Positions 2 through 48,332 of a stretch of DNA of 64,000 bases are shown here, piece after piece. Origin of the DNA: Coleofasciculus chthonoplastes F2-STO-03 (lineage in GTDB: Bacteria > Cyanobacteriota > Cyanobacteriia > Cyanobacteriales > Coleofasciculaceae); the NCBI GenBank assembly GCA_040222015.1, contig JAVJWO010000067.1, positions 15,272-79,271 of the forward strand, read 5' to 3'. Below the pieces are notes generated by a model that made no database searches, had not been told where the DNA came from, and saw nothing but the letters and a program-made list of their open reading frames with translations. Both the position numbers and the translations under genes were made by a program. Position 1 is the first letter of the stretch. Every line of letters starts with the position of its first letter.

Positions 2-1837
2 AACCTTAATGATGGCGGTGATATTACTCTCAACGCCCGTGGTAATATTCAAGTCAGCCAGATTAACGCCCAAAGTCTGGGTGATGGCAATGGCGGAGAT
101 GTCGATATTACCACTCCCAGTTATTTCCAAGCCACTGACTCCTTCATCGACCAAAATAACATCAACGCCAGTATTTCTGTCGCTGGGGGTGACAACGGTG
201 GAACCATTATTATTCGCCACGGCGGAGACGGTGAGATTCCCTTTATTGTCGGTAATCCTGATATCAATGGCACAGCAGCCGCGATTACTAGAGGCGATGA
301 CGCGGGGATACAGACAATTGAACCCACTAGAGACTATTTCTTTACCCACAAACGGGATAGAGACCGCATTCAAATTATATCGATTCTGGGCGCTGTACCT
401 CTACCGCCAACGCCCATTCCTGTGCCAGAACCAACACCCAAGCTAAACTTAGATCAAAATCCCATCGAGTCGTTAGCCTTTCGAGTTGGGGATACGTTAG
501 ACGCCGATACTACGATTAACCAAGACCCAGAAACCGGAAACTATAATATTAGCTGGAGATTTCCTGGCGAACAACCTATCAACCTCAACGTTAACAACCC
601 CCCAACTCCACTTGAAGTCACCCCCCAAGATGATATCATTGCTGAAATCGACCAACTCTTTGAAGATGAATTTGAAGACTACTTTGGCGAAAACTTAACC
701 AATGCCAACGTCACCGCCGAAAGCTTACGGGAAACACTGAAAACCATCGAACAGCAAACCGGAAAACGTGCGGTTGTTATCTATGCCCGTCATCTGGAGG
801 AAGGATTGGAACTGGTATTAGTTTTACCGGAAGACAATTATATCCGTAAACTGGTTCCCGCCGCTAATATTACCACCCTGAAAAATACTGTCAGCGAATT
901 TCAGGAGATGGTTACGGATATTACCGAATCCCGTGGCTACCTCCCCGCCGCCCAACAGCTTTATCAATGGTTAATTGCCCCCCTAGAATCCGACTTAGAC
1001 GCCTTAGATATTGATACGCTTATCTTCTGTATGGATGCCGGATTACGTCAACTTCCTATGGCGGCGTTACACGATGGCAAGCAGTTTCTGATTGAAAACT
1101 ATAGCATTGGTTCCATTCCCAGTGTTAGCCTCACCAACACCCGTTATCAACCCGTTAAAAATGCCCAAATTCTCGCCATGGGCGCGACTGAATTTTCGGA
1201 TTTAGGGGAATTACCCACAGTAGACACCGAATTAAAGATTATCACTCAAACCTTGTGGACAGGGGAATCCTTCCTCAACGAAGAATTTACCCTCAGCAAT
1301 CTGAAAACCGAGAGTCGCCGCCAACCTTTTGAGATTATCCATCTCGCCACCCATGCTGAATTTAATGACGGTAATCCGAGTAACTCCTATATTCAACTGT
1401 GGGATACGAAACTGAGACTCAATCAAGTGCGCCAACTGGAATGGTATTTACCCCCGCCTATCGAATTATTAGTCCTCTCAGCCTGTCAAACCGCCCTGGG
1501 AAATATTGAGGCTGAATTAGGATTTGCCGGGTTAGCGGTACAAACTGGCGTCAAGTCGGCGGTAGCTAGTCTGTGGTATGTAGGCGATGAAGCGACGCTG
1601 AGTTTAATGAGTGGATTCTATGCCCAATTACGCCTACCGGATATCACGATTAAAGCCGAAGCTTTGCGTCAAGCGCAACTGGCGATGTTACGGGAACAGG
1701 TGTATTTTGAAGGAGGGAAATTAACCGGAATTGAAGGGTTAGATGTTACACTTCCTGGATTGGGAAGTCGGGCAAATCAACGATTATCCCATCCTTATTA
1801 TTGGGCAGGATTTACGATTATTGGTAGTCCGTGGTAG
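2..1837 (+). CDS. Filamentous-haemagglutinin-repeat / CHAT protease fusion protein, 5'-truncated by the window edge
   Basis: Frame 2 is open from base 2 (NLNDGGDITLNARGNIQV...IIIRHGGDGE...), aligns by eye to the pre-CHAT region of the 15520-20802 protein, and continues into ORF 422-1837. CHAT motifs HLATHA, LLVLSACQTALG and HPYYWAGFTIIGSPW are present. Confidence 0.9.
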   Translation, partial: NLNDGGDITLNARGNIQVSQINAQSLGDGNGGDVDITTPSYFQATDSFIDQNNINASISVAGGDNGGTIIIRHGGDGEIPFIVGNPDINGTAAAITRGDDAGIQTIEPTRDYFFTHKRDRDRIQIISILGAVPLPPTPIPVPEPTPKLNLDQNPIESLAFRVGDTLDADTTINQDPETGNYNISWRFPGEQPINLNVNNPPTPLEVTPQDDIIAEIDQLFEDEFEDYFGENLTNANVTAESLRETLKTIEQQTGKRAVVIYARHLEEGLELVLVLPEDNYIRKLVPAANITTLKNTVSEFQEMVTDITESRGYLPAAQQLYQWLIAPLESDLDALDIDTLIFCMDAGLRQLPMAALHDGKQFLIENYSIGSIPSVSLTNTRYQPVKNAQILAMGATEFSDLGELPTVDTELKIITQTLWTGESFLNEEFTLSNLKTESRRQPFEIIHLATHAEFNDGNPSNSYIQLWDTKLRLNQVRQLEWYLPPPIELLVLSACQTALGNIEAELGFAGLAVQTGVKSAVASLWYVGDEATLSLMSGFYAQLRLPDITIKAEALRQAQLAMLREQVYFEGGKLTGIEGLDVTLPGLGSRANQRLSHPYYWAGFTIIGSPW

Positions 1838-1882
1838 ATGGATGATCAGATAATATCTAACTGTAGGGGCGGGTTTAGGGAA

Positions 1883-2314: not shown

Positions 2315-2419
2315 TCATCACGAATAGTATCCAAAGGATTGGTGGGTTACGGCGGATAGAGGATTGAATGGTTAATGGCAGAATTTAGTACCGCCAAACC
2401 CACCCTACAATTAAACAAC

Positions 2420-2447
2420 TGACAAATGACAAATGACAAATGACAAA
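2420..2447. repeat. STRR heptamer array (TGACAAA x4)
   Basis: Read directly; known cyanobacterial short tandemly repeated repetitive sequence type. Confidence 0.9.
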
Positions 2448-2454
2448 TGATCAA

Positions 2455-3162
2455 TTAATCATCTATCGCTTCAACTTCACCCGCGATCGCACTTTGTGGT
2501 AAATCCGCTAAACCCATTGATTTTAATAGGGTTTCCCAGGTTGAAGGGAGGGTACGAAGCTGGGAGATATCCTGGGGCAGATCATACCAAATATTATGTT
2601 CAATTAATAGGTCAATCTGTTGGGATAAAGGCGCTTGCTGTATCTGCGTCTCTAAGTCTTGATTATCCAACCGTTTTACCCATCCCTGATGCCAAACGCG
2701 ATCGCGCATGGATGATCCGGAGGATGTACAATATAGCATGAGTTTCCAAGTGTAGCGTTGATTTGGGGCTAAGGGGGGCGCGGTTTTGGGTAAACTAATC
2801 TGAATTAAACCGGGGGTTTGGGGTAGAGAAAATTCCTGTCGGTAGATGGTATTTTGTTGTTCGTCTTCTATGGTAAATTTGCCGGAATGGAGGCTACTTG
2901 TTTGATAGGGAATGTAGAACCAAAGGGTAGGATATCCGTTGAGAGTGTAGCCGGAAAATTCGCTATTAGTCAGGGGTAATAAGGGGGTAAAGGGTTGATC
3001 TGTTTTCTCGCAGGAACCCCGAGTTCCACCGGGATTTCGTTCTTCTGCGGGTTCACTGTCTGGGGGTTTGGGTGGATTATTGGTAGTCGGTGGGGTTTGA
3101 TTGGTTGGGGTGGAGGTGATGAGAATTAAGGAAAGAATGAGTGGAAGGTTTGGGAAAGTCAT
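2455..3162 (-). CDS. DUF928 domain protein (secreted/periplasmic)
   Basis: Hydrophobic N-terminus, Pro-rich linker, GGTRGSC, PTLWFYIPY, LAPNQRYTW, GWVKR and IWYD motifs typical of DUF928. Confidence 0.85.
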   Translation of the reverse strand: MTFPNLPLILSLILITSTPTNQTPPTTNNPPKPPDSEPAEERNPGGTRGSCEKTDQPFTPLLPLTNSEFSGYTLNGYPTLWFYIPYQTSSLHSGKFTIEDEQQNTIYRQEFSLPQTPGLIQISLPKTAPPLAPNQRYTWKLMLYCTSSGSSMRDRVWHQGWVKRLDNQDLETQIQQAPLSQQIDLLIEHNIWYDLPQDISQLRTLPSTWETLLKSMGLADLPQSAIAGEVEAIDD

Positions 3163-3206
3163 TGTTTTTTCTCCGGGTTTGGGGTTGGGTGGTTGGGTGT
3201 TTTTTT

Positions 3207-3250
3207 TAACGCAGAGGGGCGCAGAGGTTAACGCAGAGGGGCGCAGAGGG
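3207..3250. repeat. CGCAGAGG short repeat x4
   Basis: aacgcagaggggcgcagaggttaacgcagaggggcgcagagg; a reverse-orientation copy lies at ~5747-5789. Confidence 0.8.
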
Positions 3251-3268
3251 GTAGGCGTAATTGATGTT

Positions 3269-5608
3269 CTATCGATTTGGGTTGGGGTTGGGTTGATGTT
3301 TATGGGTTTGGTGTTTAACTGTGCATAGGTTGGTGATTAGATGGGCAAAAATAGAGGGAGTTAGGGGAAGGTAAAGATGAAGGGTGATAAAAATAATAAA
3401 GCTAACTCCTCCAATGCTAATTAGGATGATTCCACTGGCGATTCCTCGATAGATTAAGCCGGAAATCCGCCAGTTAATTAGTCCGGCTGATAACGCCCAT
3501 GTTCCAATCCAAAGACTCTCTATCCACCAGGGGGGAAATTGAAGTAGGGAACGTTTGTCTGTAACAGCGCTAATCAGTTGACTGATTTTATGGGCGTGAA
3601 GGTGTAAGCCGCGAATCTCTTGATTGTCTGGTGTTTTAAAGTAATCTTTGACGCTGGGATCGGTAACGCCAATTAATATGATTTTGTTTTGAATTAAGGC
3701 GGGATTCACTTGATGATTGAGTACCTGAGTTAGGGTGACAGTTGGGGCAATTTCCTCAGTGCGGCGATAGTTAAGCATGATTTGGTGTGATTTGACTTGG
3801 GAGGGGGTATAAAATCCAGGGTGACTATTCAGAATGTTGAAGCGAATTCCGCCAATTTGCCATTGTTTGGCGGTGGGAAAGTCAACAGAAAAGCCCTGAT
3901 TCTGTAAATAACGTAGGGCGATTTGGGAACTAAAAGCATAGTAGGCGGAACAGTTGGAAGGTTGAGGCGGATTCATGGCTAAAAGATGACGGCGAACAAT
4001 GCTATCGGAATCGGTAATTACATCACTAAAGCCTAGACGCTTGTCGGGAATTTGCGGTGGTGGTGAGATACCTTCGGGATCATTCTGATTGGGATGGGTA
4101 CAAATCGGAATCACGCGATCGCGCGTTTTGAGATACTCAATTAATTCCCCTTGACCTTTGCCTTCAGGTCGGTCACGATAGATATCTAAACCGATAAGTT
4201 GGGGCTGATATTGGTCTAAGGCTTGTAATAATTGCCGCATTGTGCGATCATGCAGTGGATATTCGTTGCCTAAGTTGGCGATATCCTGCCGAGTAATCTG
4301 TACCAGCAACAACCGTTGATCCGGTTCCTCCGGCTGACGCGATCGCCCAAACCAATCAAACGTCTGAAATTCCCAAGATTGCCATACACCCAGCGATCGC
4401 ATTCCCATCACCAATACCGTTACCCCCACTGTCGCGGCGATTACCCGCCACCGAGGAAGGGATGACGAGGGAGAGGGAATCGGTTGAAGCTGTTGATTCA
4501 CCCAATGGCGATCAAAAACAGAGGCATAAATCCGATTCGCCACCTGCAACTGTCCCCCCCGCTTCACCACTAACCCCGATAACCGTAATTGCTGCTGCAA
4601 ATGATTCTGATCAGCCGGAACTTTTTTCCCTTTTAGTATCCGGTGATACAGCATTAATAACGGTTGACTATCTTGATGCCCAGACAAGACGCGATCGCGA
4701 ATCGTCCGCAGATGTTCAGGATTATCCTGAGACAGCCAATTATCGAGAATGTGCGATCGTACCACCTGATCCACAAAACCAGTAGGTAGGGTGTGGGGTG
4801 TAGGGTGTGGGGTGTAGGGAAGCATTTGTTCCCTTTGTTCTCCTACCGCCTGACACACCAACCGACATACTTTTTGCGTCAGAAACGGTTGTCCCCCTGT
4901 CCAATTTAATATAGCTTGAAGTACCGCATCAGGATGACGAACCTTTCCCTGTAATCCCCTAACTAAAGGTTTCGCTTCCTCCGGCGTAAACCCCTTTAAC
5001 TCAATCGCCAAACTATCAAAATTAAACGGCGTGCGTTGATTATCCGCAATCAAATCCGATGGCGTCGCCACTCCCAACAACGCAAAGGTTAAACGCTGGT
5101 ATTTCGGCTGAGATGCCCGTTTATTATAACAAGTGCGGATAAAGCCAAACAGATCATCTTTAAAGTCTAAATTCAGAATACTATCGATTTCATCAATAAA
5201 AATAGCAATCTTACCCGCAACCCTTCCCAAAACCTCCTCATCCACGAACTTACTGAACCGATCAAAGGGAGATAAATACTCATACCGATACCACCACTCC
5301 GCCTCATCCAGATCCAACGCAAACCCACTCACCAAATGACTCACCATTGTGCCATAAAACTCCTCCTGATTAATTTGAAAACTACAGATATCCCGCATTT
5401 CCATTTCCACACAAGCGAACCCCTGATCTTGCAAGCGTTTCATCGTCCGCACCAACAAACTCGACTTACCCATCTGACGAGAATTCAGCACATAACAAAA
5501 CCGCATCCCCCTCAATCCCAGATAAAGTTCTTGATCCGCCGCCCGAACCACATAATTCGTCGCCTCCAGGGGTAAAGCGCCACCTACTTGATAGTCGTCA
5601 TTTGTCAT
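3269..5608 (-). CDS. AAA_35-family ATPase fused to a membrane CHASE2 sensor domain
   Basis: YQVGGAL, Walker A NSRQMGKSSL, Walker B IFIDEIDS, WTGGQPFLTQK; a TM helix; CHASE2 motifs LLLVQITRQDI, IGLDIYRD, DSDSIVRRHLL, IILIGVT; three C-terminal TM helices. Confidence 0.88.
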   Translation of the reverse strand: MTNDDYQVGGALPLEATNYVVRAADQELYLGLRGMRFCYVLNSRQMGKSSLLVRTMKRLQDQGFACVEMEMRDICSFQINQEEFYGTMVSHLVSGFALDLDEAEWWYRYEYLSPFDRFSKFVDEEVLGRVAGKIAIFIDEIDSILNLDFKDDLFGFIRTCYNKRASQPKYQRLTFALLGVATPSDLIADNQRTPFNFDSLAIELKGFTPEEAKPLVRGLQGKVRHPDAVLQAILNWTGGQPFLTQKVCRLVCQAVGEQREQMLPYTPHPTPHTLPTGFVDQVVRSHILDNWLSQDNPEHLRTIRDRVLSGHQDSQPLLMLYHRILKGKKVPADQNHLQQQLRLSGLVVKRGGQLQVANRIYASVFDRHWVNQQLQPIPSPSSSLPRWRVIAATVGVTVLVMGMRSLGVWQSWEFQTFDWFGRSRQPEEPDQRLLLVQITRQDIANLGNEYPLHDRTMRQLLQALDQYQPQLIGLDIYRDRPEGKGQGELIEYLKTRDRVIPICTHPNQNDPEGISPPPQIPDKRLGFSDVITDSDSIVRRHLLAMNPPQPSNCSAYYAFSSQIALRYLQNQGFSVDFPTAKQWQIGGIRFNILNSHPGFYTPSQVKSHQIMLNYRRTEEIAPTVTLTQVLNHQVNPALIQNKIILIGVTDPSVKDYFKTPDNQEIRGLHLHAHKISQLISAVTDKRSLLQFPPWWIESLWIGTWALSAGLINWRISGLIYRGIASGIILISIGGVSFIIFITLHLYLPLTPSIFAHLITNLCTVKHQTHKHQPNPNPNR

Positions 5609-5678
5609 TTGTCATTTGTCATTTGTCATTTGTCATTCGTCATTCGTCATTTGTCATTTGTCATTTGTCATTCGTCAT
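5597..5678. repeat. STRR heptamer array (GTCATT[T/C], ~11-12 units) overlapping the start of the AAA_35-CHASE2 gene
   Basis: Read directly from the sequence. Confidence 0.9.
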
Positions 5679-5833
5679 CTAATCCTAACTATCGAACCCA
5701 AGCCCATCTCCACCCCCCTAAAACTTGGCAACCCATCCACTCAACCCCTCTGCGTTCCTCTGCGTAAACCTCTGCGTTCCTCTGCGTTAAAAAACCACAA
5801 CCTATCTCCCCACAGAATCCAATCAAACAATCC

Positions 5834-7168
5834 CTAACCCCCCGATTCAATCCGACTCTCAAAATACTGACGAAATAACTCATAACGAGGACTAACGCCA
5901 TCCCCTTCCCACCGTACCAACCCCAAATTCTCCAAAACATCCGCCACCTCTGGATTCAATCTTACCGGATGATTAACACCAACAACCTGATTAAACACCG
6001 CCACTAACTCCGGCAATTGATGTAACTTTTGTTCATACATCAGCAAATAATCCCGATAAAGTCCCCTAGGAGTCGCCGCCATTACCAACACCTCCTCCAA
6101 TGTGACCAACTTTTGTCCAATTTGCTTAATCGCCTCTTGCACTAAATAAGGCTGTCCCCCCACCATCGCCATTAACCGATTCACCTGATCTCCTTGCCAA
6201 TCTAATCCATAATGTTGCGCCAACTCTTGCACCTGTTCCCGACTCAATTCCGGTAACGCGATCGGAAGTCCCGTATTAAATGGCGACTGATTAATATCAA
6301 GTTCGCGATAATCTTCCGTATACACTAAAACCTGACGCAACTTGCCCCAAATTGGGCGCGTTTTCGCATCCTCATGTCGCGTTCGCAGCATCCCTAAAAA
6401 CTCGCCAGCAACCTCTGGATACGGAAAAATTCGATCCACTTCATCTAACCCCAAAACCAGACAACTGTCTCCGGGTAACAGATGCTTTTCAAAATACGTC
6501 TTACACTTATTCTTACTATTGCCAATACTCTTCTGCCAATGTTCAGCAACTGGATTATCTGACAATGATTCTTGGTTCAGACTCAGCGTCACACTGGTAC
6601 AGAACCATTGCAGAAATCGATTCAAATCTTGAAAATCCGTCGCCGTTGCATCCCGCAGATTCAAACTCACTGCGCGATAACCCTGATCCGCCGCATAATT
6701 CAACACCCGTGACATCAACTCGGTTTTCCCCATCTTCCACGGCGCTTTAATCCGCAGCAAACATCCCGGCTTCAGGATTTCCCGGTAACAGGTAGGCAGA
6801 ATCCCCGGTTCACTATAAATATCTTGGCAAAGAGGAGACGCGATCGCACGGGAATCTGTCTCTGGATTCCTCAGTTGTTCTCCATACTGTTGATATCGCA
6901 CATACTCCCGCTTTAACCAGTCTCGCAAGCGCTTAAATTTCCCCTTTTTCTCCGTATTCAGCGCCGGACAAGAATGGGCAAATGTCGCATAAATTCGTCC
7001 CATTCGTCGTTGCAGCGTCGCCTCACTGATATGTAAATTGTCAGCAATTTTGGCATCAAGTTCAGCCAAATTGCGTTCCGCAAAGCGGAGACAGAACACC
7101 CGTCTCTCATCGGCATCAAATATACCCTGATAATCTGCAATTTGTTGTAAAAATGTATCCCACGACAT
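5834..7168 (-). CDS. AAA_35-family ATPase with an N-terminal helix-turn-helix-like domain
   Basis: IKAPWKMGKT (Walker A), LVLGLDEVD (Walker B), INQSPFNTG, MVGGQPYLV. The N-terminal IADNLHISEATLQRRMGRIY resembles a LuxR/sigma-region-4 HTH. Confidence 0.82.
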   Translation of the reverse strand: MSWDTFLQQIADYQGIFDADERRVFCLRFAERNLAELDAKIADNLHISEATLQRRMGRIYATFAHSCPALNTEKKGKFKRLRDWLKREYVRYQQYGEQLRNPETDSRAIASPLCQDIYSEPGILPTCYREILKPGCLLRIKAPWKMGKTELMSRVLNYAADQGYRAVSLNLRDATATDFQDLNRFLQWFCTSVTLSLNQESLSDNPVAEHWQKSIGNSKNKCKTYFEKHLLPGDSCLVLGLDEVDRIFPYPEVAGEFLGMLRTRHEDAKTRPIWGKLRQVLVYTEDYRELDINQSPFNTGLPIALPELSREQVQELAQHYGLDWQGDQVNRLMAMVGGQPYLVQEAIKQIGQKLVTLEEVLVMAATPRGLYRDYLLMYEQKLHQLPELVAVFNQVVGVNHPVRLNPEVADVLENLGLVRWEGDGVSPRYELFRQYFESRIESGG

Positions 7169-7379
7169 AAACAGTTAGAGGTATTCAATAGTCAGCAAAA
7201 TTGTCGGATGTGTTAGCATTCGCGCAGCATTCTCGAAAGGTAGCGTAACGCACCCTGACTCTATTCCACTAGGATATCACTTATAATCCAACGATTAAAA
7301 TAAATTGGACTTGAGTCAACAATGCAAACGTTTATAGCGAAGACAGCGCAACGATTAACAAAGAATTCATCACTAATAT

Positions 7380-7419
7380 TGATACCTTCTGATAGCTTGT
7401 GATACCTTTTGATAGGTTT
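7380..7419 (+). promoter_or_regulatory. 10-bp-phased direct repeat array TGATA(C/G)... x4, candidate operator
   Basis: TGATACCTTC TGATAGCTTG TGATACCTTT TGATAGGTTT, plus a further TGATAG at 7444, between divergent genes. Confidence 0.6.
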
Positions 7420-7574
7420 AAAACAAACCCTCACAATTCTATCTGATAGCTAGCTGTGGGTTCAAATTCAAAATAAACCGATTTAATAGACTTATAAGCA
7501 AAATACATACATCTGATCGATCAGACCTATTTTCCAGTTATCTCAACTCTCTCAGAATTTTCAGGAGTACGATT

Positions 7575-9284: not shown

Positions 9285-9367
9285 GGGCGGGTTTTACAAC
9301 TATCTTATCGGTTGCACCCAGATGTAACTAAACCCGCCCCTGCCAAGGTTTTTTTGACAGATATACC

Positions 9368-9435
9368 GTAGGGTGGGTTGAGCGAAGCCGGTGGGTTGAG
9401 CGAAGCCGGTGGGTTGAGCGAAGCCGAAACCCACC
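9368..9435 (+). repeat. REP-like hairpin with a triplicated 18-bp left arm (GGTGGGTTGAGCGAAGCC x3)
   Basis: Copies at 9372, 9390 and 9408, closed by aaacccacc. A GTAGGGGCGGGTTT...AAACCCGCCCC element lies just upstream at ~9282-9341. Confidence 0.85.
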
Positions 9436-9548
9436 AGCATACCCGTCAGTAACATTGATCTATACCTATTGAATCTTGGCTAGAGTTCTTTATGGGTAAA
9501 GGCACAAACAAATAACCAACAAAGTCTGAAAAGTTGAAGGAGAAAAAA

Positions 9549-10469: not shown

Positions 10470-10830
10470 AAATCAGGCGTCGTAAAGGTTAAAGCTATTG
10501 GCAGATGACTGTCCGCCGGACGTATCGCGACTTCACCCCTGTCTTAAAGTCACAACATTTTACCTCTGTCAATAGCTACAGTTGGGAGCAATTTTTAGGA
10601 ACGGTGAAGGACAAACTATTACAGAATGAAACCAAATTTTCTGTATTTTTTACTACATTTTTGCCTGAATTTTATCCGGGTTGCCCAAGCTGGCGATCCA
10701 CTGAATACAGAGTTGGCGATTAACTTTGTAAAGGTTTGTTACAAAATCCTGACTATGTGCGTAAATGGGAGGAATGAACCCAGAGTAATAGTTAGAAAGT
10801 CAATTCACTGTCAACCAATCCAGGAAACTT

Positions 10831-13971: not shown

Positions 13972-14008
13972 AAATTTTACGTAGGGTGTGTTAAATAGTA
14001 CAGCGTTT

Positions 14009-40656: not shown

Positions 40657-41199
40657 TTTTCTCCTATCCTTTGAGTGGGAAGACTGGTTAATTAATATAG
40701 CAGTATAGTGTTTACACTTGAGATGTAAAATCGAGGTCGAGCGTAAAAGGGAACAGGGAACAGGGAACAGGGAACAGTAGCAAGGCACTTCTAGCATTTT
40801 TCTCTCCCTTAAAAAGCTAGCATTGAGTTTTAACATTCATTTGAAAACGCTATAGACACATCGATTAGGACTTGCGGCACCATTGTTCCAGACGCGCCAT
40901 GGCGCGTCTCTACATAAATGATGTATGGCGTTTCTCATAGAACGAGGTGCTTAGGTGTGGGCGCAAGAATGATGCCCATACAGATATTTTGGTGTACATC
41001 ACGTCCTGATAAACGGCTATCTACTTGAATAGAATATACAGTTAATATGTGGTTTACTCAAAATTTTATTCAGTCAGCTTTAGCTGACTTGAGCGTTTAG
41101 CCTTGGGTTTAAACCCAAGGCTGGTTAATGGGACAGGTACAAGATCTGAGTTGAACGTGACTTAATCGGTGTTCTCCTTAACTCAGAGACTTGACGAAC

Positions 41200-43911
41200 T
41201 TAGACAGTGATAAAGTCAGCTGATGTCAATAAACCACTAGAATCCACATAAGCAATGATTTCAGATCCTAAACCAATTCGTGTTCCATTATTCATGGAAA
41301 TACCACTGACTGTACCTGTGTATGAACTCAAACTGTAACTTGACAGTGAGCCATGAATCTGAAGCTTGTCGAACTCAGTTTCACCGGAGAAACTATATCG
41401 GTCGAAATTGTCAATGACAGCGTAATCGAGTCCAGCACCGTTGTAATAGATTGAGCTACTGGTGCCGAGAATAATCCGATCGCTAGCATCATAGTAACCT
41501 GGGTTGATGATATCGATTTCACCCGCACCGTCTAAGATACTGTTGGTTCCGCTCAATGTATCGGAACCGCTGCCCCCAACGAGGGTATCGTTACCCCCTG
41601 CACCAGTGAGCGTATCGTTTCCAGTACCACCATCAAGACTATCGTTACCAAAATTGCTAGAGGAATCATCACCTGTCAGGCGATCATTTCCACTACCACC
41701 GAGTAGAATATCGTTACCCGCTTCTCCTTGGAGGGTATCATTACCTGAACCGCCATCCAAGCGATCGCCAATCGTATCAACAGCACCCAGAGTATCGGAG
41801 TCAAGGTAATCATTGCCGCTACCGCCAATTAGAGTATCCGCACCCCCTTGACCCAATAATCGGTCATTACCTGTACTACCATCTAAGGAATCGCTCCCAG
41901 CACCGCCATCGAGGGTGTCATTCCCCGCATAGCCATAGAGCGTATCGTTTCCAGTACCCCCAGAAAGACTATCGTTGCCAAAATTGATTGAGGAATCATC
42001 TCCTGTCAGGCGATCATTTCCACTACCACCGAGTAAAGTATCGTTACCAGCTTCTCCTCGGAGGGTATCATTACCATCACCGCCATCCAAGCGATCGCCA
42101 ATCGTATCAACAGCACCCAGAGTATCGGAGTCAAGGTAATCATTGCCGCTACCACCAATTAAGGTATCCGCACCCCCTTGACCATAAAGATAATTGTTAG
42201 AACTATTACCACTGATACTGTTGTTGAGGCTGTTGCCTCGTCCGGAAGAAGCCGTGCCAGTCAGTGTCAGATTTTCCAGGTTATTTCCCAGGGTGTAACT
42301 GATCGAGGAATAGACGCGATCGCTGCCTTGGTTGGCGTATTCGACGACTACATCACCTGTAGAATCAACCACGAAGCGGTCATTACCCGTACCGCCATAC
42401 ATGCGATCGCTTCCTGTACCACCCGATAGGTAGTCGTTGCCTGAGCTACCCGATAGGTAATCATTGCCAGCATAGCCGTAGAGGTAATTGTTAGAACTAT
42501 TACCACTGATACTGTTGTTTAGGCTGTTGCCTCGTCCGGAGGAAGCCGTGCCAGTCAGTGTCAGATTTTCCAGGTTATTTCCCAGGGTGTAACTGATCGA
42601 GGAATAGACGCGATCGCTGCCTTGGTTGGCGTATTCTGTAACTGTATCACCTGTAGAATCAACTACGAAACTGTCATTACCCGTACCGCCATACATGCGA
42701 TCGCTGCCTGTGCCACCATTGAGGTAATCATTTCCGGAACTGCCACTGAGGGTGTCGTTGCCTGTGCCGCCATACATGCGATCGCTACCTGTGCCACCAT
42801 TGAGGTAGTCGTTACCTGAGCTACCCGATAGGTAATCATTGCCAGCATAGCCGTAGAGGTAATCATTACCGCCATTGCCGTTCAGGACGTTCCTAGCGCT
42901 GTTACCCTTGATCGTGTCGTTCCCTGAACCGCCGTTGGCGTTTTCGATTAAGGAACGGGCATCGTCTTTATACTGAAGTGCATTAAACACATGACCACGG
43001 GCATCTTTGCCGCTGCCAAGACGGGCACGTTGGGAGTTCCCGCCAACATCAAGGTCAGACCAACCCCCTGGCGCCAGGTTGATTGATAGATTAGTGGTGT
43101 AGTTGGAGAAGTTGTAAGTATCAATCCCGTTACCATCCCAGATTGTGCGGAAGATACGGTTAGCACCTGGTGTACCTTGCCCAACACCATTAACAGACAT
43201 CTCCCCAGTGTCTTTATCAAAGGTGTAAGTCGTGTTGCCGGAATTGTAGCCAAACGATGCACCATACATCTGCTGAATTGCGGCGATGTCGTACATCATC
43301 AGCGACTGGGCATACCCCCATGTCTCATTTGTATATCCGCCAGAGCCTGGATGCCCTACATAAGATTTGTAGGTCATAATCGAGAACTCCATTGAGTCGC
43401 GATTGGAATTCATAGAGACATTGCGAACACCGCCAGTCTCGTGCCCATGTTTCAAGCCCAGTGCATGACCAAGCTCATGTCCAAAGGTGTGATAAGACCA
43501 GTTACCGATTTTCGGGCTGGTTGTTTTGGTTCTGTTAAACCAGGCGTCCCCGGCTTGGACAGTGTTTCTAGGGTAATAAGCGTATGCGGTATTAGGGTCG
43601 TTTGACATTGCCATGCGGATGGTTGCATCGCGATCGCTAGTACCCGTCCGTTCAGAGAAAGTAAGATTGGAAATATTGGCAAATGCCCCTAGCCATTCTC
43701 GCGCCACAGCTCGTTGAGTTGCATTTAACGATTGGAAGCTATCAGCATGATCCGCACGGTCGGGATAACCAGACTCATAGTCATTGATGCTGTTAGTGAA
43801 GCTAAAGCTCACTGAGTTAGATTTCCACTTAGATCCACCTAGTAAGCCATCAATGTTATTGTCGTCGGTTGCTGTTACAGTTGTTGATGGTGTGGGAACT
43901 CCAAAGCTCAT
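41200..43911 (-). CDS. Serralysin-like M10 zinc metalloprotease with RTX Ca-binding repeats
   Basis: HELGHALGLKH zinc motif, SIMTY Met-turn, YDIAAIQQMYG, IENANGGSGND, many GGxGND nonapeptides; no Sec signal; AAGGAG SD; internal 294-bp and 330-bp duplications. Confidence 0.93.
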   Translation of the reverse strand: MSFGVPTPSTTVTATDDNNIDGLLGGSKWKSNSVSFSFTNSINDYESGYPDRADHADSFQSLNATQRAVAREWLGAFANISNLTFSERTGTSDRDATIRMAMSNDPNTAYAYYPRNTVQAGDAWFNRTKTTSPKIGNWSYHTFGHELGHALGLKHGHETGGVRNVSMNSNRDSMEFSIMTYKSYVGHPGSGGYTNETWGYAQSLMMYDIAAIQQMYGASFGYNSGNTTYTFDKDTGEMSVNGVGQGTPGANRIFRTIWDGNGIDTYNFSNYTTNLSINLAPGGWSDLDVGGNSQRARLGSGKDARGHVFNALQYKDDARSLIENANGGSGNDTIKGNSARNVLNGNGGNDYLYGYAGNDYLSGSSGNDYLNGGTGSDRMYGGTGNDTLSGSSGNDYLNGGTGSDRMYGGTGNDSFVVDSTGDTVTEYANQGSDRVYSSISYTLGNNLENLTLTGTASSGRGNSLNNSISGNSSNNYLYGYAGNDYLSGSSGNDYLSGGTGSDRMYGGTGNDRFVVDSTGDVVVEYANQGSDRVYSSISYTLGNNLENLTLTGTASSGRGNSLNNSISGNSSNNYLYGQGGADTLIGGSGNDYLDSDTLGAVDTIGDRLDGGDGNDTLRGEAGNDTLLGGSGNDRLTGDDSSINFGNDSLSGGTGNDTLYGYAGNDTLDGGAGSDSLDGSTGNDRLLGQGGADTLIGGSGNDYLDSDTLGAVDTIGDRLDGGSGNDTLQGEAGNDILLGGSGNDRLTGDDSSSNFGNDSLDGGTGNDTLTGAGGNDTLVGGSGSDTLSGTNSILDGAGEIDIINPGYYDASDRIILGTSSSIYYNGAGLDYAVIDNFDRYSFSGETEFDKLQIHGSLSSYSLSSYTGTVSGISMNNGTRIGLGSEIIAYVDSSGLLTSADFITV

Positions 43912-44096: not shown

Positions 44097-44134
44097 AATT
44101 CAGGATAATTCAGGATAATTCAGGATAATTCAGG
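44097..44134. promoter_or_regulatory. 10-bp-phased direct repeat AATTCAGG(AT) x4, candidate operator
   Basis: aattcaggat aattcaggat aattcaggat aattcagg, ~185 bp upstream of the RTX protease start. Confidence 0.55.
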
Positions 44135-44271
44135 TTTCAGTCATATATATAGGGTTTACCGGTGTGGTGAGGTACATGATCAGGGCTGGGGATGAGGGCG
44201 CAATGATGGTGTCCCTACAGGGTGTACCTCACGCAATTGAGAACTGCGATAAACCTCCCACGGCTAGGTTG

Positions 44272-44325: not shown

Positions 44326-44451
44326 CGGGGGGTTCTGCACCAAGAATTCCCTTTTTAATAGACATAGATGAGACACGAAAAGGTAGGGGCACCATCCTTG
44401 CGCCCCCACAGCAGAAACCCTATAACCCCTAACCGTTAAGGATGCTCGACC

Positions 44452-45846
44452 ATGAAATTTAACCGAGAACAGGCAGTACAAATAGCCAAGCAAGTTGTAT
44501 CCGATCAAACCCACCGCAGCTTAACCGATGTTGAAGTAATCGTTCTCAAAGGATCTTGGGATAGACAAGAGTACGATCAAATTGCGGCACAAAATCAATA
44601 TTCGACCAGTTATATCAGTCAAGATGTCGCCCCAAAACTGTGGAAAACCTTAACGGATGCCTTGGGTGAGAGAGTCAAAAAAAGTAACTTAAAACAAGTT
44701 TTAGAGGCATATTGGCAACAGAAAATGGCGGCTACTGACTCAACCAATCCCCTCAGCCAAAATCATAATTATCCTTTGCCTTCAGCCTCCCCAAAACAGC
44801 AAAGTACAGAGTTATGCAAAACCACTCCCGAAGCACCAGCCGCCTTGACACCCGATCGCTATGTGGAGCGCTCTCCCCTAGAAACCATCTGCGCGAAAAC
44901 CCTATCCCAACCGGGGGCGCTAATACGGATTAAAGCACCTAGCCTCATGGGTAAAACCTTTCTCGTGACTCGAGTATTGGCTCAACTCGCCACTCAAGGC
45001 TACCGCATCGCCAGTGTAAGCTTGAAGCTGGCAGATAGCAGCAAACATTTCACCAATTTGGATAAATTCTTACGCTGGTTGTGTATTAATTTGACTCACG
45101 AACTCCATTTACCCAATGAGTTAGACGAGTATTGGGATGAAGACTATATGGGGTCAAAAGTGAGCTGCACCACCTACTTTGAAGACTATCTCTTAGCCCA
45201 AGCCAATACCCCCTTAGTTCTCTGTTTCGATGATGTGGATTTGCTCTTCCCCCATCCCGAAGTTTATGAAGACTTTTTTGGACTCCTGCGTTCCTGGTAT
45301 GAAAAAACCAGGAGTCGCCAGCGCTGGAAAAAATTACGATTAATTATTGTCCATTCAACGGATGTGTATATCCGGTTAAATATTAATCAATCTCCCTTTA
45401 ATGTCGGCTTACCCATAGAACTATCCGATTTTACCCCAGAACAGGTACAAACCTTTGCCCAGTATCATGAATTAGAACCAAATATGAGTCTAATCCAACC
45501 CCTAATGCAGATGGTGGGGGGACATCCCTATCTCTTGGAGCAAGCCTTTGCTCACCTGAAAAATCATCCAGAAATTACCCTAGAGCAGCTCCTAGCAGAA
45601 GCCCCCACGGAATCCGGAATCTACAAGAGCCATTTGCGGGAAAACTGGTTACATCTGCGATCGCATCCTGAACTCGCTACAGCATTTAAACAGGTGGTAA
45701 CCGCAACCATCCCGATCCAACTGGAACCTATATCAGCCTATCAACTCCAAAGCCTGGGATTGATCAAACTATCGGGGAATCAAATAGAGCCGCATTGTAA
45801 CTTATATCGTTTGTATTTTCGTCAGTATTTAGGAGACATTGAATGA
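44452..45846 (+). CDS. AAA_35-family ATPase with an N-terminal HTH-like domain
   Basis: N-terminal LTDVEVIVLKGSW...YDQIAA...PKLWKTLTDALGERVKKSN, an HTH-like module I recognise from cyanobacterial NTPases; IKAPSLMGKT, LVLCFDDVD, INQSPFNVG, MVGGHPYL. Confidence 0.85.
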   Translation: MKFNREQAVQIAKQVVSDQTHRSLTDVEVIVLKGSWDRQEYDQIAAQNQYSTSYISQDVAPKLWKTLTDALGERVKKSNLKQVLEAYWQQKMAATDSTNPLSQNHNYPLPSASPKQQSTELCKTTPEAPAALTPDRYVERSPLETICAKTLSQPGALIRIKAPSLMGKTFLVTRVLAQLATQGYRIASVSLKLADSSKHFTNLDKFLRWLCINLTHELHLPNELDEYWDEDYMGSKVSCTTYFEDYLLAQANTPLVLCFDDVDLLFPHPEVYEDFFGLLRSWYEKTRSRQRWKKLRLIIVHSTDVYIRLNINQSPFNVGLPIELSDFTPEQVQTFAQYHELEPNMSLIQPLMQMVGGHPYLLEQAFAHLKNHPEITLEQLLAEAPTESGIYKSHLRENWLHLRSHPELATAFKQVVTATIPIQLEPISAYQLQSLGLIKLSGNQIEPHCNLYRLYFRQYLGDIE

Positions 45847-48332
45847 ATACTGAACTTCAGCCAACGTACAGGTATCAAATTGGTGGCAGTTTACCCCCAG
45901 ATTCTTCAACCTACGTGGTGCGACAGGCAGATTCAGACTTATTTAACGCCTTATTAGCAGGGGAATATTGCTATGTTCTCAATTCCCGACAAATGGGTAA
46001 ATCCTCCCTGCGAATTCGTACCATGGACAAACTACAAGCCCAAGGAATTGTCTGTGCCGAGATTGAACTCACTGGAATTGGGAGCCAACAGATTACGGCA
46101 CAACAATGGTATGGTGGAATTATTCAAGAACTGATCAGTGGTTTTGACTTGCCGATCAATCGACGCCATTGGTTACGCGATCGCGAGGATCTTTCCCCAG
46201 TACAACGGTTGAGTGAATTTATCGAAACTCTGTTGCAGCAAATCCCCAAAAACATCGTCATTTTTATCGATGAAATTGATAGTATTCTCAGCTTAAACTT
46301 CCTCACCGATGAATTTTTTGCCCTAATCCGCAACTGCTATAATCAGCGAGCCTCTAAACCTGACTATAAACGCCTCACTTTTGCTCTATTAGGCGTCGCC
46401 ACGCCATCGGATTTAATCCAAGATAAAAATGCTACTCCTTTTAACATTGGTCGCGCCATCGAACTCAGAGGCTTCCAATTCCATGAAAGTGGAGCTTTAG
46501 TCGCCGGATTGGTTGGTCGAGCTAATCATCCTCAAGCCCTGTTAAAAGAAATATTATATTGGACAGGAGGACAACCATTTCTGACCCAGAAACTCTGTTG
46601 GCTTATCGCTCAGTCTGGTTTCGTTCAAAGTCAGGAAGTTGACACTATTCCCCCTGGTGAAGAATCCAAATGGGTAAAACAGTTTGTACAAAAGCAGATT
46701 GTCGAACATTGGGAAGCCCATGATGATCCAGAGCATCTAAAAACTATTCGCGATCGGATTTTGCGGAATGCTCGTAACAGTGAAAAATTGCTATTATTAT
46801 GCCAACAAATTCTCCAACATGGAAAAATTGCCGCCATAAATTCTGATGAACAGATGGAATTACGGCTATCGGGAATAGTCACCAAACAAGAGAGTTATTT
46901 ACGAATTTATAATCCTATCTACGAATCTGTCTTTAATTTAAAGTGGGTGAGTGCTAAACTAATCGCATTGAACTCATCCCCAATCCGAGTAGACAAGGCA
47001 ACCGACAAAAAGGCAAAAATTCCCGAAGATATCAAGGAGATTGAGCCGGAATCATGGAACAATCCTCCAGAAGCGATTCCAATTTCCCCAATTCCTGCAT
47101 CGGAGAGCCAAGTATTACCTGTAGACTCGCGGCAAGAACCGTGGTGGTGGGTTGGGTTAAGGGTACTAATCGCCAGTGCGATCGCAACAGGTTTGGTTTT
47201 AGGAGTGCGATCGCGCGGTGGGTTGGAGTCTTGGGAACTTCAAGTCTTTGATCACCTGATGCGGTTACAACCCCAGGAAGAACCCGATGAACGACTTTTA
47301 ATTGTGGAGATTACCGAAAAAGACGTTCAGGCTCAACCCGCAACCGAACGAGTGGGTGCGTCTCTATCGGATCGCGCCTTTGCTCAACTCCTGGCTAAAT
47401 TAGAGTCGTATCAACCCCAAACCATTGGCTTAGACATTTATCGCGATCGCCCTGTAGAGGACAACTATCCAGAGTTAGCCCAAGCCATGGAAACGAGCGA
47501 TCGCTTGTTTACCATTTGCCATTACGGTAATCCTGGGGTGATACCGCCACCGGAAGTGTTAGGCGAACGACAAGGTTTTAATAATGTAATCCTGGATGCT
47601 GATGATATTCTGCGTCGTCATCTTCTCGCGGTTTCTGACGCCTCACCCTGTCAAAATCAATACGCTTTTAGTACACAGGTTGCTAGTCATTACCTAGCTA
47701 CCCAAGGAATTGAGCCGCACCTGAATTCCGACGGGTATCTTCAGCTTGGCTCAACCGTATTTAAAACCTTAGATACAAACCCTGGCGGCTATTCGACGAT
47801 CAAGTCCAGTGGTCACCAAATTTTACTCAATTACCGCGCCACGAATCAGATTGCTGAGAAAATTACGCTTACAGACGTTCTCAATGGTCAACTCAATCCT
47901 GAACAGGTAAAAAATCGTATTGTTCTAATTGGTACCACGGCTCCCAGTTTTAACGATCATCGTTGGTTCACTCCCTACAGTAAAGGAAAAGGAACCGTTC
48001 GAACCATGACGGGGATTGAAATTCAAGCCCAGATGGTCAGTCAAATTCTCAGTGCTGTTTTAGATCAGCGATCGCTAATCTGGTGGTGGTCAGAACCCAT
48101 TGAGATCCTCTGGATTTGCGGCTGGTCTTTAATTGGTGGACTACTTGCCCAAAATTCTCGTTCACTGCAAGGTTTTCTGGTTCAAGGCGGAGTCGCGATC
48201 GCTATTTTATATGGAAGCGGCTGGGTGCTTTTCCTGCAAGGGGGTTGGATACCCCTAGTTCCCGCCGCTTTAGCCTTGGTTATGACTGGAGGTATGCTGA
48301 TTGTTTTATCTCGATTTAAGATTAATCCGTAG
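45843..48332 (+). CDS. AAA_35-family ATPase fused to a membrane CHASE2 sensor domain
   Basis: ATGA overlap with the upstream gene; NSRQMGKSSL, IFIDEIDS, WTGGQPFLTQK; TM helix; IGLDIYRD, DADDILRRHLL, IVLIGTT; three C-terminal TMs. Confidence 0.9.
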   Translation: MNTELQPTYRYQIGGSLPPDSSTYVVRQADSDLFNALLAGEYCYVLNSRQMGKSSLRIRTMDKLQAQGIVCAEIELTGIGSQQITAQQWYGGIIQELISGFDLPINRRHWLRDREDLSPVQRLSEFIETLLQQIPKNIVIFIDEIDSILSLNFLTDEFFALIRNCYNQRASKPDYKRLTFALLGVATPSDLIQDKNATPFNIGRAIELRGFQFHESGALVAGLVGRANHPQALLKEILYWTGGQPFLTQKLCWLIAQSGFVQSQEVDTIPPGEESKWVKQFVQKQIVEHWEAHDDPEHLKTIRDRILRNARNSEKLLLLCQQILQHGKIAAINSDEQMELRLSGIVTKQESYLRIYNPIYESVFNLKWVSAKLIALNSSPIRVDKATDKKAKIPEDIKEIEPESWNNPPEAIPISPIPASESQVLPVDSRQEPWWWVGLRVLIASAIATGLVLGVRSRGGLESWELQVFDHLMRLQPQEEPDERLLIVEITEKDVQAQPATERVGASLSDRAFAQLLAKLESYQPQTIGLDIYRDRPVEDNYPELAQAMETSDRLFTICHYGNPGVIPPPEVLGERQGFNNVILDADDILRRHLLAVSDASPCQNQYAFSTQVASHYLATQGIEPHLNSDGYLQLGSTVFKTLDTNPGGYSTIKSSGHQILLNYRATNQIAEKITLTDVLNGQLNPEQVKNRIVLIGTTAPSFNDHRWFTPYSKGKGTVRTMTGIEIQAQMVSQILSAVLDQRSLIWWWSEPIEILWICGWSLIGGLLAQNSRSLQGFLVQGGVAIAILYGSGWVLFLQGGWIPLVPAALALVMTGGMLIVLSRFKINP

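Follow-up and report, generated by a model that had tools for sequence, protein, structure and literature searches.

A paired AAA_35 NTPase system with a CHASE2 sensor that may link the cell envelope to surface and secreted genes in Coleofasciculus chthonoplastes

In a 64,000-nucleotide stretch of the cyanobacterium Coleofasciculus chthonoplastes F2-STO-03 (hereafter the window), genes for a CHASE2 sensor, an AAA_35 regulator, an exported DUF928 protein, a CHAT protease and a large exoprotein are found together twice, in a different order each time and next to divergently transcribed genes for surface or secreted proteins. This raises the question of whether these parts form one signalling system and how a signal would pass through it; a preliminary description of the window had proposed a phosphorylation-free relay from the envelope to the DNA. 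In the best explanation, to which we give a probability of roughly 0.55, the NTPases of sensor and regulator form a pair which carries an envelope signal to the divergent surface or secreted genes. The system is most likely a split, membrane-anchored variant of a transcription switch of the STAND type (signal transduction ATPases with numerous domains), fed by a conserved envelope module.

The window is C67:15272-79271, that is, contig JAVJWO010000067.1 of a 7.7-Mb assembly of 219 contigs, to which all C-labels below refer. Its genes were mapped from a listing of open reading frames (ORFs) together with Pfam and NCBIfam searches of the window proteins, and all of the parts that had been named for the two loci were recovered. 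Coordinates are followed by the strand; TM stands for transmembrane segment and TPS for two-partner secretion.

Locus 1:
2-1837, plus strand: TPS...CHAT exoprotein, the C-terminal 611 amino acids of an ORF open at its 5' end (Pfam CHAT, 6.4e-71)
2455-3162, minus strand: exported DUF928 protein (Pfam DUF928, 1.6e-43)
3269-5608, minus strand: sensor of 779 amino acids with a short AAA_35 (13-254), one TM, CHASE2 (397-709) and three TMs (Pfam)
5834-7168, minus strand: regulator with a 124-amino-acid type-A head and a full AAA_35 (125-437; Pfam AAA_35, 2.9e-106)
7575-9284, plus strand: DUF7453/NxxGxxAF repeat surface protein with a PEP-CTERM-like tail (VPEP...RRRK), divergent from the regulator (Pfam, NCBIfam)
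9534-10469, plus strand: XDD3 family exosortase-dependent surface protein, a candidate target (NF041930, 2e-64)

Locus 2:
31286-34018, plus strand: TPR-CHAT protease with an N-terminal hydrophobic, signal-like segment (36-54; Pfam, hydropathy)
33993-34835, minus strand: exported DUF928 protein with a signal-like segment at 15-33 (Pfam, 2.2e-51; hydropathy)
34913-36055, minus strand: Rpn/DUF2887 recombination-promoting nuclease or transposase-like gene (Pfam, NCBIfam)
36253-40836, minus strand: TPS-domain (filamentous haemagglutinin-like) exoprotein of 1527 amino acids (Pfam TPS, 1.4e-49; TIGR01901)
41200-43911, minus strand: serralysin-like metalloprotease with RTX repeats, a candidate target, divergent from the regulator (Pfam, NCBIfam)
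44452-45846, plus strand: regulator with a type-B head, a linker and a full AAA_35 that has 125 amino acids in front of it and a winged-helix end (Pfam AAA_35, 8.9e-139)
45843-48332, plus strand: sensor with a short AAA_35, one TM, CHASE2 and three TMs (Pfam, hydropathy)

The sensors and regulators of the two loci carry the same two kinds of module. CHASE2 (PF05226) scored 208.6 bits in locus 1 and 237.4 bits in locus 2 (cut-off 26.3). Hydrophobic segments lie at residues 389-407 and 715-741 of the first sensor and at 437-455 and 778-823 of the second, and the alignment of sensors has one TM before CHASE2 and three hydrophobic stretches at the C-terminus. Both proteins end 10-20 residues past the third C-terminal hydrophobic helix, in agreement with the earlier statement that nothing follows the last TMs; the alignment and the hydropathy profile likewise bear out that the N-terminal AAA_35 is the sole cytoplasmic module of the sensor. 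The full AAA_35 (PF14516) of the two regulators scored 355.5 and 462.3 bits, covering positions 21-330 and 2-331 of the 331-position profile, and the short AAA_35 of the two sensors scored 85.5 and 89.5 bits over about positions 4-250 (cut-off 27 throughout). Walker A and Walker B motifs are kept in all four AAA_35 modules of the window, for example as LNSRQMGKSS and IFIDEID in the sensor of locus 1. The start of the sensor gene in locus 2 overlaps the stop of the regulator gene by 4 bases, and a gene for a Ser/Thr protein kinase with a C-terminal type IV pilin-like G/H domain (48427-50358, minus strand) converges on that sensor gene. The reverse arrangement, with CHASE2 first and a C-terminal STAND-like module after it, was seen at C130:24307-26922, where the nSTAND1 match is weak (27 bits) and short-AAA_35 matches are also present.

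To place the pair in a wider context, species-representative genomes were scanned with an AAA_35-CHASE2 alignment and the best 80 of 611 confirmed matches were taken. These gave 79 foreign loci (L-labels) with flanks of up to 10 kb and a total length of 1.42 Mb, the ORFs of which were scanned with hidden Markov models (HMMs) built from the paralogues of our own genome; the same HMMs were used for mapping neighbourhoods in the own genome. It should be noted that many of the genomes behind these loci are related and that the counts ignore phylogeny. As the foreign loci were picked by the sensor gene, the presence of a partner is an independent observation. A full-AAA_35 gene was found directly upstream, on the same strand, of at least one short-AAA_35 gene in 59 of the 79 loci, and the arrays were of the types (f for full and s for short AAA_35) fs (n = 41), fS (n = 13), fss (n = 3), fssss (n = 1), sfss (n = 1) and sfs (n = 1). 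Among the 19 loci with an AAA_35-CHASE2 protein, the full-AAA_35 gene, described earlier as HTH-AAA_35 (HTH, helix-turn-helix), was the upstream partner of the sensor in 13, which confirms it as a regular companion; of the other six, two are cut at the end of the locus, two have the partner about 8 kb away, in one the upstream gene is another short AAA_35 and one is without any. The heads on the full AAA_35 comprise two HTH-like types, CHAT (5 loci), Pkinase, an XRE-like domain and GerE with a TIR-like stretch, and the sensors on the short AAA_35 comprise CHASE2, WD40, TPR and PAS. In the NTPase pair, one gene thus joins a variable head to a full AAA_35 and the other joins a short AAA_35 to a variable sensor, and the two genes are linked whatever the head or the sensor.

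The AAA_35-CHASE2 architecture itself is common in filamentous and other large-genome cyanobacteria, and 110 of the 120 best matches listed carry both Pfam families, and 3 (P0066, P0091 and P0118) have in addition a cyclase between AAA_35 and the first TM. Proteins that are 89-97% identical to the sensor of locus 1 bear Coleofasciculus names. Of 201 genomes sampled from the phylum, 71 have an AAA_35 match (66 of these over the cut-off), as against 0 of 14 control genomes; AAA_35 is present in nearly all sampled genomes of some families and in 2 of 73 genomes of one small-genome family, whose members are mostly about 2 Mb among those listed.

The remaining genes of the set travel with CHASE2. 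In the 19 foreign loci that hold an AAA_35-CHASE2 protein, DUF928 was found in 12, TPS in 12 and CHAT in 8, and the parts thus recur together as had been claimed; near 76 short-AAA_35 genes with other C-termini in the same 79 loci there were 0 DUF928 genes, 0 TPS genes and 10 cases with a CHAT match. The AAA_35-CHASE2 protein is a fusion which joins an envelope module to the NTPase pair. In Nostoc, the gene for an RTX-repeat protein lies divergent from the regulator gene, which is followed on its own strand by the sensor and DUF928 genes and then by CHAT and TPS genes that run towards them. Since the Nostoc loci hold the same families compactly, the six families of locus 2 are the Nostoc set in another order. 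The Rpn/DUF2887 gene of locus 2 is probably a passenger, as the compact Nostoc versions of the set are without it. Downstream of locus 2 there is also an IS605 OrfB fragment (50751-51581, minus strand), and both genes may be linked to the gene order of locus 2, which is rearranged relative to the Nostoc loci.

In our own genome, searches matched 32 AAA_35, 23 CHASE2, 25 DUF928, 68 CHAT, 42 TPS and 7 ShlB sequences. A CHASE2 gene is found no more than 3 kb from 12 of the 25 DUF928 genes (expectation about 0.023 per gene), and a CHAT gene no more than 3 kb from 13 of them (expectation about 0.076 per gene); 18 of the 25 are near one or the other and 14 have a TPS gene within 10 kb. The clustering of DUF928 with CHASE2 and CHAT exceeds chance. 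The complete set is present four times, because C46, which matches locus 1 gene for gene, and C142, which has all parts within 17 kb, add to the two loci of the window. When 82 ORFs of 13 regions of the genome were searched with Pfam, the CHASE2 proteins linked to DUF928 were found to have the following cytoplasmic parts:

AAA_35: C46, C67 (twice) and C142
Guanylate_cyc: C164 and C41
SpoIIE: C162
three TIR domains: C30
N-terminal CHAT, with a DUF1822 neighbour: C41 and C159
no cytoplasmic part called: C10 and C22

The TPS exoprotein, CHAT, DUF928 and CHASE2 therefore make up an envelope module with an interchangeable cytoplasmic output, which may be a cyclase, PP2C, kinase, TIR, CHAT or AAA_35. 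In the case of C30 (L084:2544-5468), the CHASE2 protein with three N-terminal TIR domains lies beside DUF928, TPR-CHAT and TPS exoprotein genes, which is the same envelope module with a death-type output.

The DUF928 proteins (PF06051; 149.1 and 174.7 bits, cut-off 26) begin with a signal-like segment followed by a Pro-rich linker, and G-x-R-G-x-C is invariant ahead of the conserved domain; a sequence-profile search of the PDB with DUF928 gave no meaningful match and no solved relative. The CHAT domains (PF12770; 239.6 bits in locus 1 and 198.3 bits in locus 2) keep the catalytic His and Cys motifs, as HLATHAEF and LSACQT in locus 1 and as HIATHGKF and LSACET in locus 2. Proteases of the caspase/separase fold often cleave after Arg or Lys, and for this reason G-x-R-G-x-C is a candidate CHAT site. 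The domain which had been labelled 'FHA' is present, and its identity had to be revised: the matches to PF05860 and TIGR01901 are to the TPS secretion domain of filamentous haemagglutinins, and the reading as a forkhead-associated domain was dropped. The whole exoprotein ORF of locus 1 extends over C67:12099-17108 (1669 amino acids) and has its TPS domain at residues 41-255, upstream of the window. This establishes that TPS and CHAT are fused in locus 1, as previously suggested, and they are separate genes in locus 2. A third exoprotein of this kind in the window adjoins neither DUF928 nor CHASE2, and a simple pattern for the catalytic Cys motif gave no match in it:

15418-20802, plus strand: TPS...CHAT exoprotein of 1794 amino acids (Pfam TPS and CHAT)

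A dedicated transporter gene of the ShlB/FhaC type was not found beside the exoproteins of the window, as none of the 7 genome matches lies on C67. Among the 13 regions scanned, only the sister cluster in C164 has a TpsB gene adjoining the exoprotein, and with 42 TPS genes to 7 ShlB/FhaC-type genes most exoproteins must lack a dedicated adjoining TpsB.

To see whether the NTPases of sensor and regulator touch, a complex of the cognate pair of locus 2 was modelled from residues 1-400 of the sensor (alignment of 22 sequences) and residues 120-464 of the regulator (alignment of 18). The interface score ipSAE was 0.67, 0.72 and 0.72 in three runs, with 0.00 for the best of three controls; the mark applied to this score is reached by 116 of 157 solved complexes and by 2 of 215 mismatched pairs, which is a rough guide since the alignments were of our own making. 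Contacts agree between the runs to at least 77%, and the pLDDT (predicted local distance difference test) of the partners is at least 83. In the predicted interface, the Walker A/B residues of the sensor (50, 54 and 143-147) face residues 229-245, 270-289 and 308-323 of the regulator. The second of these stretches contains R280, which is near-invariant in the alignment and which is placed by the model in the geometry of a trans-acting arginine at the nucleotide site. The suggested pairing of the two ATPases thus passes its controls in the cognate model (ipSAE 0.72 vs 0.00), a result which does not distinguish a relay from, for example, sequestration.

The fold of the NTPase was examined with a model of the locus-2 regulator (pLDDT 86.2, predicted TM-score 0.68, from 18 sequences), in which a five-helix head (5-96) and a disordered linker (98-133) precede a P-loop domain and a helical domain, with a winged helix at the end. 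A Foldseek comparison with the PDB gave matches to the nucleotide-binding leucine-rich repeat receptor (NLR) resistosomes NRC4 (2.3e-9), Sr35 and ZAR1, to Apaf-1, CED-4, Avs3/4 and MalT and to the origin recognition proteins ORC/Cdc6; E values ranged from 2e-9 to 3e-6 for STAND members and likewise for ORC/Cdc6, and the archaeal ATPases 2fna and 2qen matched with TMt 0.62-0.64. On account of these matches, AAA_35 is predicted to be a STAND/ORC-like NTPase by fold, in a test which cannot split STAND from ORC-like proteins. The earlier reading of AAA_35 as an AAA ATPase is accordingly to be corrected if a classical AAA ring ATPase is meant. A sequence-profile search of the PDB with the regulator matched only the P-loop stretch of RecA and gave no solved relative. 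The possibility that AAA_35 is nSTAND1 (PF20703) was rejected because the Pfam nSTAND1 model matches other genes: its 18 matches in the genome are at other places than the 32 AAA_35 matches and none is on C67. It should also be noted that the layout that marks STAND proteins, with a sensor domain C-terminal to the NTPase on the effector polypeptide, was not seen here. The functions are instead split over two genes, with the regulators ending at the winged helix (residues 444 and 464) and the sensor protein having no head before its NTPase.

The regulator heads had been described as HTH domains, although no Pfam or NCBIfam family was called in them at cut-off. The best matches below cut-off were Sigma70_r4 (E 0.0046) in the paralogue of C142 and Sigma70_r4_2 (E 0.04) in that of C7, and the type-A head of the window matched Sigma70_r4 with E 0.18 and HTH_30 with E 0.081. 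By hhalign, with a GerE alignment built from nine regulators of the own genome, both heads aligned to GerE with the scaffold and recognition helices in HTH register (type A, P = 1.3e-4; type B, P = 1.1e-4) at a probability of only 54-56%. The type-B head is 100 amino acids long, and three of its helices (26-36, 41-47 and 52-71) lie in the stretch aligned to GerE. For type A, only 7 homologues were found, 6 of them at 92-99% identity and the named ones all from Coleofasciculus, and the model (pLDDT 81.9) was therefore built from 3 sequences. All top Foldseek rows for this model were sigma-r4 or LuxR/NarL/FixJ-type, but with E values of 0.3 or worse. VIA-align matched it to Spo0A (Z 7.8) and to StyR, NarL, RcsB, EvgA and DegU (Z 6.6-6.9) over 60-66 residues at 2.0-3.0 Å, the Z scores of 5.7-7.8 overall being under the tool's caution line of 8. 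A paralogous regulator in C96 has a GerE match over the Pfam cut-off (43.9 bits), and AAA_35 is among the accessory domains of cyanobacterial sigma70-domain proteins in the accessible part of PMC11119718. From sequence and model comparisons, the heads are likely to be LuxR/sigma-r4-type HTH domains, and it is the likeness seen by hhalign, Foldseek and VIA-align, weaker tests than a family call, which speaks for the earlier description.

Both divergent regions contain a tandem array with an exact 10-bp period, which is a candidate operator:

7380-7418, no strand: type-A array of four tandem units TGATA[CG]CTTN, in the divergent region of locus 1
44097-44134, no strand: type-B array of four tandem units AATTCAGGAT, in the divergent region of locus 2

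One further type-A unit lies at 7442-7451, and the unit reads AAAG[CG]TATCA in the orientation of the regulator. Period-10 arrays of at least 3 copies number 66 in the 7.7-Mb genome, about 40 of which come from one dispersed repeat, and the chance of finding one in a random 730-nt window is about 0.0065. In the own genome, 3 of the 4 complete sets have such an array before the regulator gene, and the set of C142 is the one that does not. The unit AAAG[CG]TATCA is also found before the paralogue in C46 (five units) and in L013 of Limnofasciculus (three units), which is the only foreign type-A regulator in the 79 loci. In a search of the 7.7 Mb and the 1.42 Mb together, the in-phase triple [CG]TATCA-N4 was found only upstream of all 3 type-A regulators (C67, C46 and L013). 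The type-B triple [AG]TT[CG]AG is unique in the own genome; in the foreign loci it precedes the regulator genes of L063 and L004, and it has one further occurrence in L034, on the downstream side of the sensor gene. Four Nostoc loci share a different upstream motif.

A number of further repeats were seen around these regions. Three imperfect type-A boxes (TTGATACCTT) lie in C15 (L093:1075-1105), outside any AAA_35 locus and upstream of an 85-amino-acid ORF, an IS630 transposase gene and an operon for a cyclic nucleotide (cNMP)-binding C39-peptidase ABC exporter, HlyD and a PpiC-like protein; this site may be a further regulon member or may be due to chance, and it was not counted for or against the arrays. 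Tandem AATTCAG boxes away from the upstream region of the regulator in type-B loci (L034:8238-8263 and about 13057; L002:5616) are possible further binding sites. A 26-nt inverted repeat (44193-44218 and 44383-44408, 88% complementary, arms 164 nt apart) lies between the type-B array and its regulator and is overlapped by terminator-like hairpins. Both operon gaps of locus 1 contain a copy of a dispersed element which is about 40 nt long, repeats internally every 10 nt and has about 40 copies in the genome, one copy being between DUF928 and sensor (3210-3251, CCTCTGCGTT) and one between sensor and regulator (5747-5788, AACGCAGAGG). Most of 4900-10500 is matched, at about 90-99% identity, by contigs from 4 metatranscriptome runs, with a very high depth at 5461-5834 that fits a repeat, and one contig (1627-1753 nt) spans 5898 (5772 in X4) to 7502, which is most or all of the regulator together with the array. 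As these contigs show neither transcription, strand nor ends, and DNA carry-over is possible, they were not used as evidence.

The genes on the far side of the arrays are the candidate targets. The regulators of all three type-A loci (window, C46 and L013) have a divergent XDD3 gene, the matches scoring 217.8, 194.3 and 219.9 bits (cut-off 80). This gene directly adjoins the regulator in C46 and L013 and sits behind the gene at 7575 in the window, where the protein has a PEP_CTERM tail (18.2 bits, cut-off 16). In 4 of 12 foreign loci linked to CHASE2 (Nostoc L006, L016, L021 and L033), the regulator has a gene for an RTX-repeat protein as its immediate divergent neighbour, as it does in locus 2. 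The supposed link to divergent surface or secreted genes was thus borne out, with XDD3 in 3 of 3 type-A loci, RTX in 4 of the 12 foreign loci and conserved boxes in between.

Taken together, these results suggest a path for the signal. The input would be supplied by the periplasmic or surface proteins whose genes accompany CHASE2, namely DUF928, the exported CHAT protease and the TPS exoprotein, and a candidate periplasmic step is the cleavage of DUF928 by CHAT after the invariant Arg of G-x-R-G-x-C. The CHASE2 sensor with its cytoplasmic AAA_35 and the sister AAA_35 with its HTH-like head would then form a mixed oligomer, as the modelled contact suggests, and this oligomer would bind the 10-bp tandem array in the adjoining divergent promoter region. 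Once bound, it could control the XDD3/PEP-CTERM genes in locus 1, the RTX protease in locus 2 and possibly its own operon, and the signal would pass without a kinase or second messenger. Hetero-oligomerisation of the NTPases is what we infer from the model, and DNA binding by the heads, the direction of regulation and the entire periplasmic step are likewise put forward as inferences. A more far-reaching version is rather doubtful: an envelope event, such as the processing of DUF928 or of a surface filament by CHAT, would be read by CHASE2 and would lead to ATP-driven co-assembly of a sensor and a helper NTPase, the heads would align on the phased 10-bp boxes and switch surface-protein genes, and the same chassis with swapped heads (TIR, caspase or kinase) and sensors would serve cyanobacterial self/non-self recognition and cell death.

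Several observations weigh against the pair acting as an envelope-to-promoter switch. With regard to partnership, 20 of the 79 foreign loci have no adjoining full-AAA_35 gene (the locus is cut short in 2, the gene is about 8 kb off in 2 and it is divergent in 3), the candidate partner of the C142 sensor is 13 kb off, and the four Nostoc loci are close kin and not independent. The modelled complex may pass because of its likeness to solved STAND and AAA+ oligomers, and it does not separate hetero- from homo-oligomers. For the heads, the lack of a family call and the probability, E and Z values given above count against an HTH identity, and hhalign detected no relation between type A and type B. 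At the DNA, of 10 type-B loci linked to CHASE2 only 3 (window, L063 and L004) have the AATTCAG triple ahead of the regulator gene, and Tandem Repeats Finder (TRF) found arrays upstream of only 9 of 78 full-AAA_35 genes, which means that arrays are not a general mark of the AAA_35 family. Scans for consensus promoters and terminators in both divergent regions gave no more sites than shuffled sequences. Finally, the divergent genes in the other 8 of the 12 foreign loci are a CDF transporter, purA, unknowns and transposases, and the outputs of sister systems, which bear three TIR domains or CHAT on their DUF928-linked CHASE2 proteins, suit a conflict or cell-death role no less than ordinary gene regulation.

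The loci may be conflict or self/non-self systems and not part of housekeeping signalling. In that case the AAA_35 pair would serve multicellular cyanobacteria as an NLR-like receptor divided into sensor and effector, the TPS-CHAT exoproteins would be surface weapons akin to polymorphic toxins, or kin tags, and DUF928 would be a periplasmic inhibitor or immunity-like protein, with the HTH version switching on a defensive surface or secreted response. CHAT, Pkinase or GerE plus TIR-like heads on the full AAA_35 at other loci speak for this, as do the TIR and CHAT outputs of the sister systems, the great expansion of the families in one genome (the 68 CHAT, 42 TPS, 32 AAA_35, 25 DUF928 and 23 CHASE2 matches), the closeness of the fold to NLR resistosomes and Avs, and the patchy spread of AAA_35 across genomes; two-gene STAND operons and caspase-CHASE2 proteins are taken as counter-invader systems in the accessible part of PMC8195603. 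The loci of the window nevertheless have HTH-like heads and not death effectors, their conserved neighbours are surface or secreted proteins and not nucleases or NADases, and no phage, mobile-element or immunity-gene signature was seen save one Rpn-like gene. We regard such a role as unlikely; it concerns purpose, and is compatible with the mechanism set out above.

The opposite logic, in which the sensor ATPase is an anti-activator that sequesters the HTH-ATPase at the membrane at rest and an envelope signal frees the regulator to oligomerise on the array, appears unlikely to us. Its strength is that the regulator alone has a head and the full module of nucleotide-binding, helical and winged-helix domains, that some full-AAA_35 genes are without an adjoining short-AAA_35 gene (7 'f' singletons in the foreign loci, and others in the own genome), and that the predicted contact suits a holding complex as well as an active one. 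There is also the precedent of the STAND regulator MalT, which is kept inactive by membrane-associated MalK. The predicted interface, on the other hand, is of the nucleotide-site type typical of active STAND/AAA+ assemblies, and several sensor genes behind one regulator (fss, fssss) suit an arrangement of many inputs and one output at least as well. That the modules or the divergent genes are chance neighbours which are not coupled, and that the arrays are ordinary short tandem repeats, is very improbable. The genome is rich in repeats (5702 TRF arrays), the divergent gene differs in most foreign loci and locus 2 is rearranged and contains a transposase-like gene, but the fusion protein itself links the modules, DUF928 and TPS are present in 12 and 12 of 19 loci vs 0 and 0 of 76, the box triple was found at the 3 type-A regulators alone, each time together with XDD3, and the six families are found in compact order in the Nostoc loci. 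We therefore retain the sensor/regulator NTPase pair as the best explanation.

CHASE2 is a widespread sensor domain, DUF928 and AAA_35 are nearly absent from the literature, and the loci offer a testable chain from an exported protease and a small exported protein to CHASE2, an NTPase pair, a DNA box and a surface-protein gene. If the proposal is true, STAND/NLR-type switches can be wired to extracytoplasmic sensors and can act in bacteria with sensor and output split over a pair, and the array-bearing XDD3 promoter would be a reporter for finding the CHASE2 signal. On the more far-reaching version, a transmembrane NLR-like pair would join phosphorelays and second messengers as a third route for signals across the inner membrane of bacteria.

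Among known systems, the regulators of the MalT/LAL type (LAL, large ATP-binding members of the LuxR family) resemble the pair in coupling a STAND-type NTPase to a LuxR-like HTH, in line with the fold matches, which include the MalT entry 8bob that is titled for its MalK-type regulation. Oligomerisation driven by nucleotide probably places several MalT HTHs on the MalT boxes, which are asymmetric, about 10 bp long and arranged as direct repeats. MalT differs in that its HTH is C-terminal and in that sensor, NTPase and HTH form one soluble polypeptide, whereas in the window the head is N-terminal and the sensor is on a second, membrane-spanning NTPase with an extracytoplasmic CHASE2. In paired sensor/helper NLRs, such as NAIP-NLRC4 and the plant pairs, two related STAND NTPases split sensing and output and co-assemble, and NRC helper resistosomes were the top fold matches of the regulator. 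Those immune receptors are soluble and their final outputs are pores, proteases or NADases; the sensor of the window, by comparison, spans the membrane as an envelope receptor, and the pair is likely to act by binding DNA.

The closest published relatives that we found are in PMC8195603 (Kaur, Iyer, Burroughs & Aravind 2021), the accessible part of which describes nSTAND2 as a two-gene operon of STAND NTPases that are proposed to form a hetero-multimer, with one of them inactive through eroded motifs and with GT4 or HEPN effectors. The likeness is in two adjacent STAND NTPase genes, one of which bears a variable effector; in the window the Walker A and B motifs are intact in both NTPases and an HTH-like head takes the place of the effector, and as it has neither eroded motifs nor GT4/HEPN the pair was set apart from nSTAND2 as described there. 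A row of the supplement, 'TIR+DrHyd -> nSTAND1+TM+CHASE2+TM+TM+TM', is another relative, and so are the EACC2-caspase-CHASE2 proteins that occur with an extracytoplasmic function (ECF) sigma factor and DUF1822. The latter share a cyanobacterial CHASE2, an N-terminal cytoplasmic effector and transcription as the final output, and use a caspase and a sigma factor where the window has an NTPase pair with an HTH-like head; the sister loci in C41 and C159, which hold CHAT-CHASE2, DUF1822 and DUF928, are akin to them. In the accessible text of this paper, neither DUF928, AAA_35, TPS nor two-partner secretion is mentioned and 'filamentous' is not used for a haemagglutinin, and DUF928 is also not in the supplements searched. 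The preliminary statement that no such mechanism had been described is thus qualified by conceptual relatives, namely MalT-type regulators and these STAND operons and STAND-CHASE2 fusions, and stands in that the exact set is not described in that part of the paper.

A term search of the accessible text of PMC7159879 gave no mention of CHASE2, DUF928 or two-partner secretion, and in the open literature, subscription journals aside, we found no description of an AAA_35 pair with an HTH head together with DUF928, CHAT and TPS. A CHASE2-DUF928 neighbourhood in Nostoc punctiforme has been noted (PMC5587647, accessible part). The CHASE2 adenylate cyclases of Sinorhizobium meliloti, which are described with NsrA in the accessible part of PMC13001267, have the same extracytoplasmic CHASE2 with one TM before it and three after it, and a ligand that is unsettled, and the classical CHASE2 kinases and cyclases share this module; the output of the cyclases is C-terminal to the TMs, whereas the cytoplasmic module of the window sensors is an N-terminal NTPase. 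Against this background, what is new here is the predicted contact between the two NTPases, the LuxR/sigma-r4 likeness of the heads, the tandem arrays and the association of the type-A box with XDD3.

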